From positions 175,088,001 through 175,152,000 of the forward strand of contig OX597817.1 of the NCBI GenBank assembly GCA_951406725.2: DNA of 64,000 nt, given 5' to 3'. Origin of the DNA: Octopus vulgaris. Lineage: Eukaryota. Position 1 is the first letter of the stretch, and every line of letters starts with the position of its first letter. The position numbers were made by a program. Shown here piece by piece: positions 46,401 to 61,400 of the stretch.

Positions 46401-49400
46401 GTTCTTTGTAGTATATTTCCTTGCTATTATTGTTGAGAGAACACAATATTCAATGTGTTGTTTATCTTCAGACTTTTGTTTTAAGATATTCTGTATGTTT
46501 CTCCTTTTTTATTGTATCAGGACTAGTTGTTGTAATATATTTGTACTTCACGCTTTTCATATACTGCTGTTGTTTCCAAGTGATATAACTTTCCATTTGT
46601 CAGAGACAAATAGGTTTTCAGTGATTCTTTAGTAACAGAATAGTTTAGTTAAATGTTTGAAGCAGTTTATGATTTGTGTTGTAGAAAGTTTTATCTGAAA
46701 ATGTATTAGCAAAGTGGGGGAAAATAACTCAAAGGATTTTTGTAACATTTTGAACCTATTGTTGTTTGTGTTGTTTAAATTGGTAGGTTTCATGTTTTTT
46801 ATTCTACCTTGTGGTTGCAAGAATAAATGCCATCCTCTTTCAGATACACATGGAGATGGTATGTATGGTGCAGATGAAGGAGTGGTTTTGACTTCTCCTC
46901 CCTCAACATGTGATCGTGATGAGAGCTATGCAAAAGGGATTCCGCCGTACGGCTTGCTGACACATTCATCACAAGATGGGTTTTCTTCTTCCGATAAAAC
47001 AGGTGATGTCACTTCTCCTGCTGATGCTTGTTATGAGTTTCATACTGCTACACCTGACATTACTTCCCCTCCATCACCTGATTCTCATGGTGATATAAGT
47101 ATTTTATCAGCTCAAGGGCAACAAGTTCAACCTTCGTCCCTCCACGAAAGTGTTAGCCCTCATGTAATTGAAAAGGATGTAAAACCTCATACGATAACTT
47201 TTAGTACTTCGGCTAATCCCAAACCCCAAATTACAGGAATGGAGTTGAATATTGAAAAAACTGAATTTCCTTCACTGCAGGGTTTAGAAAGTTGTGATAA
47301 TGGTACCAAGTCTTTCAATAAATCTCAGTGCCTGCCTTCTGAAACAAATGTCAAAAGTATGGATGTAGTAGATAGTTCTAAACCTTCATTAGAACATGTT
47401 TCCGAGCTTGAAGTTGATGTCAGCAAAGCACCCCAGTCTGATGGAGCATCTGCTGCAAGCAGCAAATCTGAAGGGAGCAAAGAAACTTTGACATTAATTT
47501 CATCAGAATCTTGTCAAATATCTATTACCAAAACTGAAGAAGAAAGTGATTCCGAATCTGAAGAAAATTCTGTTATAGAGAGAGATCCCTCACTGCTGGA
47601 CTCTGATTCAACAGGTTACGGAGACCAGAAGTCTGACACTGATAGCTCGTATGTTGAAGAAGAAGAAGTGTCAATTTCTGATTCAGACGAATCAATTCCT
47701 TTTGGAAACTCTGATAATAAAGAAACAGAAAAGAAGAAATCTTTTGATGAAGAATTAATTTCGAAACAAACTGCTGCTGAAACTTCATATATTGAAAGTC
47801 AAGAAAGGATGCCTACATTTTATACTGATGCTTTGGATTCTCGACAAAATCATGAAGCATCCAGTACAAGTGCAGACAGCAAGAAAGAGTGCCAAAAAAG
47901 TGAAGTTATTGCGAAATCTAAGGTTGGTTCACTGTCGAGTAGTGACTCAACTTCAGATTCAGCAGCAAGTATCATAGAAACTGTACCTCAGAAATTGAAA
48001 TCTGAACTGTCATCAGTGTCTCAAAAATCTACAACGTCAAATGTAGTAGAAACTTCAAGTGCAGTGAAGTTGTTATCGTCAGTTGAGGAAGATGATCCAA
48101 ATTTTCAGGAAGGCCCTCAAACTGTTGAAGACAGTTCTTCAGATAGGGATGAATATATGTATACATCCGATATTGAAGCTAAAGTCATCCAAGAAAAAAT
48201 TGAATCTCTCATTTCAGAAGTAGCTGAAGAAATGAGAAAAGGTCAATGCTCATTTGATGAAACAATAAAGGAATATCATACAGAAACTCTTAAGGCATTG
48301 GAAGCTGTTGAGGGTGATAATCATTCCTCAGGAGATATGCCTGATGAGAGTTTGGAACAGTACTATTCTTTAGATGAAACTCACAGTGTTGACAGTAATG
48401 AGACACTTGAATTTGCTGAAGAAAGTGCTGAAATGAAAGATACAGAAATGGTTGTGACAGCTGACATGACAGCATCTGATGATGTGATGAAAAAGGTTGT
48501 GGATGACTCTAAAAAGAGCTTCGAAGAAGAAAGTTTGAAAAAAAGTGTAATATCCCCTAAGATGGATATTGGTAGCTTGTCAGAGTTGGAAGCAGTTCCT
48601 TCTAAAGTTGAAAAGTCTATTTTGGAAGCTAAAGTGGTTTCAATAGAAGGAAATCCAACAGAGACAGAAGAGGCCCACAGAAAAAGTATGGAAACATGTC
48701 CAACTGACAAAGCTCATATACAAGAGGTAAGTGTGAAAGACCAAAGCAAGGAAGCATCAGAAACAAGCAAGGAGGTTGAATGTTTGAGGGAAATAAAAAC
48801 GAAACCAAAGGAGAGCGATACCCATTTGGAAGAAGACTCACAAGATATTACTGGTATACCTTCTGGTACTTATCTTGGGAAAAGACTAAGCCTTGTAGAA
48901 AGTCCCCGCGAAATGATGGAAATTGCTAGAAGAGGAAGTATCATTGACACAAAGTCAGTTTTTTCTGAGGTTACCCAAGTGAAGCCGATAGAATCCTCTC
49001 CCATAGTAGTTAAAGAGCAAACAGCAATTTCAGAGCCTGCACCCACATTAATAAAAATGGATGTAAAATATACAGAAACTGTTCCTCCTCTAGCAAAAGA
49101 GGAAATATTCATTGAAAAGACTGCACCTTGTGAGGTTGAAGAAATAAAAGCAGTAGAGACTGAAGAAATTGTGGTTAAAAGTGTACAACCTACAGAATCA
49201 GTTTCTCTTTTTGAAAAAATAGAACATCCTGAAACAACTGCATATCCTCTAATTAAAGAAGAGAAGGCTATTAAAATGATCCCATGTACTCCACCGGAAT
49301 CCACTGTACATGAAGTAAAACTAAAAGAGACTGCACCTTCTGGGATTAAAGAAGAAAAAGCTATTAAAACAATCCCTTGTACTCCGCCTGAACCCATAAA

Positions 49401-58400: not shown

Positions 58401-61400
58401 GGCTCCTGAGGTGAAACCTGTTGAAGCTCTTGAAGAGAAACCTGTGGAGGCTACTGAGGTAAAACCTGTGGAGGCTCTTGAAGAGAAACCTGAGGAGAAA
58501 CCTGTGGAGGCTCTTGAAGAGAAACCCGAGGAAAAACCTGTGGAGGCTCCTGAAGTAAAACCTGTGGAGGCTCTTGAAGAGAAACCTGAGGAGAAACCTG
58601 TGGAGGCTCCTGTGGCGAAGCCTGTGGAGGCTCCTGAGGTGAAACCTGTGGAGGCTCCTGAAGTAAAACCTGTGGAGGCTCTTGAAGAGAAACCTGAGGA
58701 GAAACCTGTGGAGGCTCCTGAGGCGAAACCTGTGGAGGCTCCTGAGGTGAAACCTGTGGAGGCTCCTGAAGTAAAACCTGTGGAGGCTCTTGAAGAGAAA
58801 TCTGTGGAGGCTCCTGAGGCGAAACCTGTTGAAGCTCTTGAAGAGAAACCTGTGGAGGCTACTGAGGTAAAACCTGTGGAGGCTCCTGAAAAGAAACCTG
58901 TGGAGGCTCCTGAGGAGAAACCTGTGGAGGCTCCTGAAGTAAAACCTGTGGAGGCTCCTGAGGAGAAACCTGAGGAGAAACCTGTGGAGGCTCCTGAGGT
59001 GAAACCTGTGGAGGCTGCAGAGGCAAAACCTGTAGAGGTTCCTGAAGAGAAATGTGTTGAGGCTCCGGAGGAGAAACCTGTGCTATCTGCTGAGGAGACA
59101 CTTGTGGAAGCTCGTGGAGAGAAACCTGTGGAGGTTCCTGAAGAGAAACCTATAGAAGCACCTGAGGAAAAACCTGTGGAGTCTACTGAGAAAGTACCTG
59201 TGGAGGCTCCTGCAGAAAAACCTGTGGAAGCTGTTGAAAAGATATCTGTGGAGTCTACAGAGGAGAAATCTGTGGAGGCTCCTGAGGTTGCATTATCGGG
59301 TGTTACTCTTACGGATGGTAGGAAGTTAGTTGAAAAGGAAGAAAGTACAGGGACTGAAATCTGTGGTGAAGCACAAGGCAAAGATTCTGACCAGATGGGT
59401 CTTTTAACAGCAATTCTTGATGAAGAAAATCAGAATGTACCATCAGGAGATAGCATTAGTGACTCTGTTGTATCAACTGTATGTGAAATTGGTGTTGCAA
59501 AGAAAGTTGAACCAGAGATGCCAAAGGAAAGCCAAGCAACTGAAGTGTCTGATATATCAGAAGTAGATTCATTGAAGTTAAATGGTGATCACTCAGAAGT
59601 GAAACTGTCTGACAGTGGTCTCGATCATTCTGGTGTTTCCACTGAATTTCAAAATGAAGTGGCAAAATCAAATCTTACTGCTGTTGAATCTAATAAAGAC
59701 ATTGCTGACCAAATTGGCGATATATCACTTGGAACTGCTGTTAGTGCTAAAGATGAGGTAGAATCTGTGATAAAACCTATTTCTGTTGAAGAAACTCCTC
59801 AGATTGAATTGAAAAGTAATAAGGTGTCCAAAGCTGATTCTGAGAGCCAACCAATTGATACAGTCAATGAAAAGCAAGCATATTCAGATATTGAACACTT
59901 GCAAAAACTAAATGGTGATTTGTTACCAAAAGATCTTGAAGAGATTGTCAAAGTAACTAAGACTGAAGATGGCAATACTGTCAACAAAGTTGAGCTGCTG
60001 GTTCAAAAGAAAGCTAAGATTTTGACCTCTGAGCAAATTATCAAAGATAACCAGAAAATGACTAAAACCAAAGACACAAAACTGAAAAAGTCTAAAAAGA
60101 AAGAGTCTAAGAGTAAAAGTCGTGGAGAAATAACTCCTGGAAAAGAAGGAGTCCGATCTAAATCCTCAAAAAGCAGTCCGGAGAAAGGTGTAAAAAAAGA
60201 GAAAAAGGCGTCATCACTTGTCAGTACTCCAAAACAGAAATCAACCTCTTCCTCTAAGCAAAGTTCAAGTTCAATGAAGAAATCAAAAGGAAGTAGTAGC
60301 CCTACAAAATCCAAGTCTAGTTCTTCGAAAAGCAAGGGCACAAGTAGTACTGAAAAAGTAAAACCAGTACTTAGGTCTGTCTCTTCACCCCCCAAAGCAA
60401 GCAGTAGCCCTATAAAAACAGATAGTATTGATTCTTCAAAAGTATCTGATTCATCCCTGAAGAAAGAAAACAATACTTTGCCTGCTGAGAAACCACGAGG
60501 AAGATCAACAAGTAGGAGCGTCATACTGAAGAGAACTACCAAAACTGAAAAATTAAGACTGGCAATGATAAAAAACACTTTGGAAGCTAGTCAGAACCAA
60601 GTTGGTCCAGCATATTCACATTCTCCAAGTGCCCGCCGAATACGCAGCTGCAGTCCCCAAAAAACCTCTCGAGTGACATCACCTGATAAAAGGACAGGAT
60701 CACCTTTGAAGACAAAGTCAACCACTGCCCGTTCAAGAAAAGGTTGAACTATCTGTATCAGCTTAATAGTCTTCCCTTGCAGCAAGCAATTGTGTATGCC
60801 TGGGTGTGTTAGCATTTTGTCTCCGTTCCGCTATTATTTTGCAGCTTGCATTGGACAAACCATATGTATAACCAGTTGTTTCATAGCAGATGTAGCAATA
60901 TACAGTGATATTGGTATTGATATACAGTGATATTACATTAAACCATAGAATTTGTATTGATTAAATGACTTTTTCATGGATGAACTTAGTTGCCACAGTG
61001 ATACCACTATTTGCTTTTAAGAATTTTTAATAATTATTGCTTAAAATATTGATTCTGGTTATTTAATTGCTTCTAGGATAAATGCTATTTAAGTGGTATC
61101 ACTGTTTTATTTATGGGTGTATAAAAAAATGTGCGTATATAATTGCATACTTATGTATATGTATGCATGTAACTTAGTGTTTTTTTTTCATGTACATGCA
61201 TATATCAATATATGTACATTTTCAAATATGTATATATATGTGTGTATATTTTTGTGTGTGCAAGTGTGTGCAAGTAATGTGTGCCTGCATTTCTACAAGA
61301 GTTATTACCAACTTTTAAGTATGTTTCATTGGTGTGTGTAGAGTTGTGAACTCTATACACACATATCAGAATGTATGAAAACGAATCTTCAAAATTATTT

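Follow-up and report, generated by a model that had tools for sequence, protein, structure and literature searches.

A 13.9-kb exon in Octopus vulgaris as a putative optional cassette for the projection domain in a gene of the tau/MAP2/MAP4 family

What kind of protein would contain a coding block of nearly 14 kb in which no globular domain is recognised? The question is raised by a 64,000-nt stretch of Octopus vulgaris DNA (GenBank assembly GCA_951406725.2, contig OX597817.1, positions 175,088,001 to 175,152,000 of the forward strand; hereafter the window, numbered from its first letter), for which a first-pass annotation had proposed a single giant exon encoding part of a protein like the microtubule-associated proteins (MAPs). 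Our favoured answer, to which we give a probability of about 0.78, is that the block forms a single giant exon, included or skipped in splicing, within the octopus MAP gene of the tau/MAP2/MAP4 family. If this is true, the optional exon of 4,633 codons would encode by far the longest known arm in that family and make the cephalopod protein its extreme.

On the plus strand, one frame is open from 46699 to 56976 (3,426 codons) and reopens from 58231 to 60744, ahead of a TGA at 60745-60747. Chance cannot account for 3,426 stop-free codons in DNA of 35-53% G+C, 2,227 of them non-repetitive. The exon start at 46844, in phase 1, is where the first-pass annotation had put it: the acceptor tttcAG/AT (AG at 46842-46843; context ccatcctctttcAG/AT, the slash marking the exon boundary) is the best of the eight phase-1 AG candidates in 46699-46960. 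The proposed end is the donor AAG/GTTGAA between 60742 and 60743, likewise in phase 1 and 3 nt ahead of the TGA. So delimited, the exon comprises 13,899 nt, or 4,633 codons, with phase 1 at both ends. The exon, its donor and its segments are as follows, all on the plus strand.

46844-60742, + strand: giant exon, a putative optional cassette for the projection domain in a tau/MAP2/MAP4-family gene (open reading frame (ORF), splice sites, matches to database proteins P0001 and P0002)
46844-48798, + strand: acidic Ser/Glu/Asp-rich start, 651 aa, isoelectric point (pI) 4.35, net charge -79, Ser 18%, Glu 13%, Asp 8% (composition)
48799-53526, + strand: Glu/Lys/Val/Thr/Pro-rich middle, 1,576 aa, net charge -174, Glu 17%, Lys 11%, Val 9%, Thr 9% (composition, repeats)
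53528-59287, + strand: 24-nt tandem array, similar to the Pro/Glu/Val/Lys-rich (PEVK) region of titin (Tandem Repeats Finder, composition)
59288-59985, + strand: non-repetitive acidic linker, 233 aa, pI 4.26, conserved with P0002 (composition, BLASTP)
59986-60742, + strand: basic Ser/Lys/Thr/Pro-rich tail, about 252 aa, pI 10.8, net charge +48 (composition, P0002)
60743-60747, + strand: donor GT and the overlapping stop TGA (60745-60747), the stop being read if the site is unspliced

The family assignment comes from the downstream end of the exon. Each exon or stored database protein was searched singly. An exhaustive phmmer search of 1,835,955,588 protein representatives with the tail region (59287-60744) returned a sole match at E<=0.001, P0002 (793 aa; E 8.8e-163, 74% identity). 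By BLASTP, residues 37-485 of this query aligned with residues 1-436 of P0002 (315 of 450 positions identical), and tblastn placed the match at 59395-60741. The match begins at an internal Met of the giant exon and closes with ...ARSRK, at the final complete codon ahead of the proposed donor, past which P0002 goes on with DQLSDQ... into eight PF00418 tubulin-binding repeats (residues 437-793; Pfam, E 8.7e-81), so that the counterpart of the basic tail directly adjoins the repeats on their N-terminal side. P0002 also matched tau chains in PDB at E 2.1e-43. With its residues 437-793 as query, in a search limited to proteins of 196-625 aa, 1,067 of 4,166 candidate proteins scored at E<=0.001, almost all of the 1,067 being named tau, MAP2 or MAP4; among the 120 listed, the sequences of four were read (P0003, P0005, P0007 and P0013). 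In the relative P0002, then, the tail of the giant exon is, by its database sequence, joined at the proposed donor to a tau/MAP2/MAP4-type microtubule-binding domain. The first-pass annotation had offered this donor as a candidate exon end and had predicted a binding domain of the MAP2/tau/MAP4 kind downstream of the window; the alignment with P0002 bears out the former, and the eight repeats in P0002, with none in the window, the latter, through relatives only. The repeat-bearing exons would lie beyond the window, which ends 3.2 kb past the giant exon.

The upstream part of the exon has a counterpart in Octopus bimaculoides. A word-index search with exon residues 1-2225, in which 7,996 proteins of 1,857-5,910 aa were scored, gave a sole match, P0001 ("titin, partial [Octopus bimaculoides]", 2,625 aa; 91% identical), and no full-length giant protein model was found among the proteins scored. 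P0001 is a single-exon model, collinear with 46792-54666 of the window as one high-scoring segment pair of 88% identity without introns. When the exon tail served as word-index query against longer proteins, none of the 8,000 scored was a match, which is weak evidence.

The relatives also point to the exon that would precede the giant one. In ungapped six-frame comparisons, 27368-27412 was the top match in the window to the N-termini of both P0005 (score 48, the next 27) and P0003 (score 46, the next 31), and it lies upstream of a long intron.

27368-27413, + strand: first coding exon, ATG and 15 codons (MAETAADKIQSLDIE) with a further single G ahead of the donor G/GTAAGT, phase 1 (six-frame match)
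27414-46843, + strand: intron of 19.4 kb, rich in microsatellites and interspersed repeats (ORF list, self-comparison)

The first exon reads ATG GCT GAA ... GAA G/GTAAGT. Its peptide aligns with P0003, P0005 and the bivalve P0013 (Dreissena polymorpha), which starts similarly with MADPVTDQMRNMNVQD; the start of P0007 is unrelated. In P0003 the exon-1-like peptide is joined straight to the repeat part (...MAETTADQFQFIEIE/DRLLAEQ...), and in P0005 the two are joined via five residues (MAEIEAEKFQALDIE/DFGFK/DRLLAEQ...). These five extra residues, 16-20 of P0005 (FGFK and a split codon), are such as a 15-nt microexon would yield; the window held no match to this microexon at up to two mismatches. 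Because the end of the first exon and both borders of the giant exon are in phase 1, the giant exon could be included or skipped in frame. The phases agree at all junctions, and all three junction types, as read in P0002, P0003 and P0005, rebuild an Asp codon. In-frame skipping, which the first-pass annotation had raised as a possibility, thus finds its counterpart in P0003 and P0005, again through relatives only. We infer that the giant exon lies, on the same strand, in the intron between the first exon and the repeat-bearing exons; in 27414-46843 no further recognisable coding exon was found, the ORF list holding low-complexity ORFs only.

What would such an exon encode? Its segments have the make-up described in the first-pass annotation, an acidic N-half followed by a huge repeat array and a basic tail, and the absence of a recognisable globular domain also held up. 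In the in-frame parts the net charge is at least -518, the charge-hydropathy line has all six exon segments on its disordered side, and the tail (59986-60744) is 23% Ser, 20% Lys, 9% Thr, 6% Arg and 6% Pro. Pfam gave nothing above cut-off in any of the four exon pieces. A PDB sequence search gave no match for 46846-53526 and one chance-level row for 58231-60744 (E 0.062, the tail of ribosomal uL4), and the ESM Atlas held no usable match for the acidic start or for the module stretch described below. Outside the main array, a degenerate 42-nt repeat (14 aa, VKEEVKPAETAPTV-like) occupies 49480-49664 in 4.4 copies, and a 93-nt repeat 49252-49428 in 1.9 copies.

The array itself is built on a 24-nt unit with the consensus CCTGTGGAGGCTCCTGAGGAGAAA, encoding PVEAPEEK, together with 36-nt variants and higher-order repeats. 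Tandem Repeats Finder reported 47.5, 179.5 and 13.3 copies in three rows across 53528-59287, which corresponds to about 240 PEVK-like 8-residue units and about 40% of the giant exon. Its in-frame part (53527-56976) is 32% Glu, 20% Pro, 13% Ala, 13% Val and 13% Lys, with Pro, Glu, Val and Lys together making up 78%. A Pfam scan of the array at E<=1 returned only Gp5_trimer_C (E 3.9e-4, 21 bits against a cut-off of 30.9). Gp5_trimer_C is likewise built on an 8-residue period, and because this period is common to both, the match is most likely a coincidence of period. Two long minus-strand ORFs also cross the array (53482-59082, 1,866 aa, and 53517-58130, 1,537 aa); they are by-products of a 24-nt unit that has no stops in those frames and are not evidence for an antisense gene.

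Within the otherwise disordered arm, alignment revealed a module of about 45 residues in three copies, with 30 invariant columns and the consensus DSQDI..IP..TYL.KRLSLVEF..ESP..V.EI.RRGSII.

48835-48945, + strand: module copy 1, without four residues (FMAE) that are found in P0001 of O. bimaculoides (alignment)
49687-49809, + strand: module copy 2 (alignment)
53161-53283, + strand: module copy 3 (alignment, AlphaFold2)

For the stretch 53149-53448, AlphaFold2 predicted two helices, at residues 14-30 and 32-41. The predicted local distance difference test values over the module were 80, 82 and 75 (means of 10-residue blocks, residues 11-40), with an overall mean of 60.8 and a predicted template modelling score of 0.24; the model was made from an alignment of only three sequences, so its confidence is weak. 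KRLS is present in all three copies and RRGS in two of the three (copy 2 has RSGS), and we take both motifs to fit consensus sites of basophilic kinases. No match to the module was found in Pfam or the ESM Atlas. An A-kinase anchoring protein (AKAP)-type helix that binds RII was considered and did not fit, as judged by eye against the consensus only. Our guess is that the module could be a docking site.

Several observations weigh against reading the block as a cassette exon of a tau-family gene. Inclusion (P0002) and skipping (P0003, P0005) are seen only in different relatives, the junction from 27413 to 46844 is putative, and P0003 and P0005 are 61% and 67% identical, respectively, to the repeat part of P0002. 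P0002 starts at an internal Met of the exon and may represent a computed gene model and not a transcript. No PGGG occurs in any frame of the 64-kb window, and tblastn of P0002 residues 437-793 against the window gave weak low-complexity matches and no tubulin-binding repeat. Furthermore, of the 328 sliding 100-aa windows across 46846-56976, 55 lie beyond the crude charge-hydropathy line, on its "folded" side. GTTGAA is a weak donor, with five of nine matches to the consensus MAG/GTRAGT and a stop 3 nt on, and ATTAAA occurs at 60937 and 60960, 190-215 nt past the TGA at 60745-60747; because of these three features, some transcripts may end at the giant exon, without the microtubule-binding part. 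Hexamers such as these two ATTAAA are frequent by chance in AT-rich DNA. Finally, the annotation of O. bimaculoides at NCBI has the counterpart of the exon as a separate gene, "titin, partial", and the O. vulgaris frame as assembled contains 33 in-frame stops between 56977 and 58230.

These last two points lead to the rival explanations. The coding block described in the first-pass annotation as uninterrupted is not so in the assembly as it stands; the claim of a giant exon of about 4,650 aa stood as to the long frame over the interval, 4,633 codons, and failed as to its continuity. The stops arise because seven indels of 1-2 bases between 56938 and 58261 (in order +1, +1, -2, +1, +1, +2, -1; net +3) shift the repeat register through all three frames and then back.

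56977-58230, + strand: out-of-frame stretch of the array in the present assembly, with 33 stops in the exon frame (frame scan, unit register)

If the breaks are real, the exon would be decaying or translated only as far as the TGA at 56977, its transcripts either giving a truncated protein without the microtubule-binding part or being degraded, or else splicing within the array would remove the stretch. The clustering of all seven indels within 1.3 kb would fit this, as would the finding that no other plus-strand frame of at least 200 aa spans the gap, and GT and AG are present in every unit, as array-internal splicing would require. Five of the seven indels, however, are length changes of single-base runs, the other two being a 2-base loss and a 2-base gain (units read by eye). 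None of the 40 shifted units has a stop in its own register, as none of the 159 in-frame units does, and the shifted units carry no extra substitutions, their variable positions being identical. Past the shifted stretch, 838 codons (2.5 kb) are still open in the original frame, the final 449 of them conserved with P0002. The stretch also sits between the most homogeneous blocks of the array, in which non-unique 60-mers amount to 41-81% at 55750-56749 and 56% at 58250-58749 and where consensus calling is hardest. Since the units are intact in register, the downstream frame is open and conserved, and the flanks are homogeneous, the likeliest source of the frame breaks is faulty consensus calling in the assembly, with changes of very recent date as the most that we would otherwise allow, and we consider real breaks unlikely. 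The unit count of the array in the present assembly is not to be trusted.

The separate gene model in O. bimaculoides suggests another possibility, namely that the exon is a gene of its own, nested in the first intron of a tau-family gene and encoding an acidic PEVK-like ("titin-like") protein that ends at the TGA at 60745-60747, with P0002 as a gene-prediction fusion. The weak donor with its adjacent stop, the ATTAAA hexamers downstream and the 78% of Pro, Glu, Val and Lys in the array all fit such a gene. It is nevertheless very unlikely in our judgement: the start Met of P0001 (46792) falls in what reads here as intron followed by a polypyrimidine tract and AG, both exon ends share phase 1 with the first-exon donor and the downstream acceptor, the similarity to P0002 stops exactly at the donor, and no Ig (immunoglobulin), FN3, kinase or PPAK match was found by Pfam in the exon pieces or among the precomputed domains of P0001, for which no Pfam domain is recorded. 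The database name of P0001 and the PEVK-like composition might even suggest part of an elastic muscle protein like titin/connectin (sallimus), with the array as its spring. This we regard as extremely improbable and have discarded, because Ig and FN3 domains are absent (Pfam on all four exon pieces, and the ORF list of the window) and the tail is joined to tau-type tubulin-binding repeats in P0002; the 15-codon start exon is, moreover, common to tau-family proteins. P0001 is thus most likely a mislabelled fragment of a tau-family gene, its name "titin, partial" being without domain support, which is a practical point for annotation in O. bimaculoides.

Elsewhere in the window, two families of interspersed repeats lie upstream of the first exon and in the long intron, one of about 400 nt (4605-6681, 12160-12501, 15344-15725) and one of 230-320 nt (23348-23579, 29503-29811, 32777-33091). 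Their copies are 67-90% identical, occur in both orientations and resemble short interspersed elements in size; they had no Rfam or Pfam match, and Rfam gave no match in the whole 64-kb window. Pfam on six intronic ORFs returned only a sub-threshold zf-RVT (reverse-transcriptase zinc-binding region), in an 81-aa ORF on the minus strand at 19874-20116 (E 0.0038, 18.3 bits against a cut-off of 27.5; local G+C 0.41), which is probably a retrotransposon remnant. TA/CA-type microsatellites are dense throughout, for example at 28100-30700, 39540-40850, 42170-43560 and 63680-64000, and yield spurious YIYIYI and HTHTHT ORFs on both strands.

How might a giant cassette exon work in a tau-family MAP? 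The gene would comprise a 15-codon first exon, the 19.4-kb intron, the 13.9-kb exon and downstream exons with about eight tubulin-binding repeats. In O. vulgaris, skipping would give a small MAP of about 370 aa and inclusion one of about 5,000 aa. By comparison with the tau family, the C-terminal repeats would lie along the microtubule, and the basic Ser/Lys tail beside them would add affinity for the acidic tubulin surface and would be a likely target of phosphorylation. The remaining roughly 4,400 residues would form a disordered polyelectrolyte arm or brush, spacing off neighbouring microtubules, filaments and organelles, in which the roughly 240 PEVK-like octapeptides could act as an entropic spacer or spring and the three helical modules as candidate docking sites. 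By our own arithmetic, 4,633 residues have a contour length of about 1.7 micrometres, and the arm, though coiled, should still extend several times farther than that of MAP2; the PEVK-like array suggests an entropic elasticity like that of the PEVK region of titin. The length of the projection domain is said, with reference to work by Chen et al. in 1992, to set microtubule spacing in the tau family. The octopus arm may have a role in microtubule spacing or axon calibre. If true, the exon would offer a test case from nature for the effects of arm length, charge and PEVK-like elasticity on the axonal cytoskeleton in animals with large axons.

Among known systems, high-molecular-weight MAP2 (MAP2a/b) is the closest in plan, and through the PF00418 repeats of P0002 it belongs to the same family. 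In MAP2, an optional very large exon lengthens an acidic, disordered projection, a basic region lies beside the repeats, and short and long isoforms are made from one gene, the long ones having roughly 1,400 extra residues. The octopus gene would resemble it in an optional huge exon, an acidic disordered projection and a basic region by the repeats. It differs in that the exon has about 4,633 codons, includes the basic tail within the cassette and is about 40% PEVK-like octapeptide array; the Pfam family MAP2_projctn had no match in the exon pieces. The array recalls the PEVK region of titin in its dominance by Pro, Glu, Val and Lys and its short tandem units, and a disordered, entropic-spring behaviour is plausible for it. 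The PEVK unit of titin has about 28 residues, whereas the octopus unit has eight, with no match to the PPAK-type motif (Pfam at E<=1), no Ig or FN3 neighbour and an anchor of tubulin-binding repeats in P0002. The projection domain of MAP4 contains 14-residue repeats, which the 42-nt (14-aa) repeat at 49480-49664 resembles in period and composition only. Two papers hold invertebrate tau-family proteins to be closest to MAP4 (PMC9755724, PMC4815063), and one of them ascribes "shorter amino termini" to the molluscan proteins of the family (PMC4815063).

Likeness of another kind is found with Futsch/MAP1B and the giant ankyrins (Ank2-XL, 480-kD ankyrin-G and 440-kD ankyrin-B), which also carry giant, repeat-rich, disordered segments, mostly encoded in single huge exons. 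These segments act on the organisation of axonal microtubules. They belong to other families, whereas the binding part here is of the tau type: Pfam found no conserved MAP1 ends, ANK repeats, ZU5-UPA or death domain in the exon, and the upstream ORFs of the window were low-complexity only. Futsch is 5,495 aa long according to PMC7337489, where the relation of microtubule spacing to MAP length is also discussed. Big tau, with exon 4a of MAPT, offers a cassette exon that likewise encodes an acidic disordered insert, described in PMC9755724 and PMC12896622 as conserved in length and poorly so in sequence, and credited there with independent origins in different lineages. The insert from exon 4a has about 250 aa according to PMC12896622, so the octopus exon is about 18 times longer. 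These reviews make no mention of mollus/octopus/cephalopod (PMC9755724) or of mollus/octopus/squid (PMC12896622). Gottschalk and Hefti 2022 (PMC8985376) assign three tubulin-binding-repeat proteins of O. bimaculoides to a single gene, LOC106878541; whether these are isoforms or fragments is left undecided, and the giant exon is not mentioned. Squid "axolinin" (260 kD; PMC2114230, PMC2114206) was considered as a possible counterpart, but its size does not fit the predicted product of about 0.55 MDa.

In the literature searched, with subscription journals and closed supplements outside its scope, we found no published description of the giant exon. Collectively, the sequence comparisons support a giant-exon, high-molecular-weight isoform of a tau-family MAP, which would be of a scale not reported for the family. 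We can suggest a wider hypothesis only tentatively, and consider it rather doubtful: in octopods, and perhaps in cephalopods generally, the single tau-family gene might act as a switch between a binder of about 40 kDa and a form of about 0.55 MDa with a strongly acidic, PEVK-like arm of about 4,600 residues, more than three times any known projection domain of the family. Such an arm, with its modules as regulated docking points, could set very wide microtubule spacing or give elastic cross-bridging in large-calibre axons, and would stand beside MAP2, Big tau, Futsch and the giant ankyrins as a parallel of independent origin.

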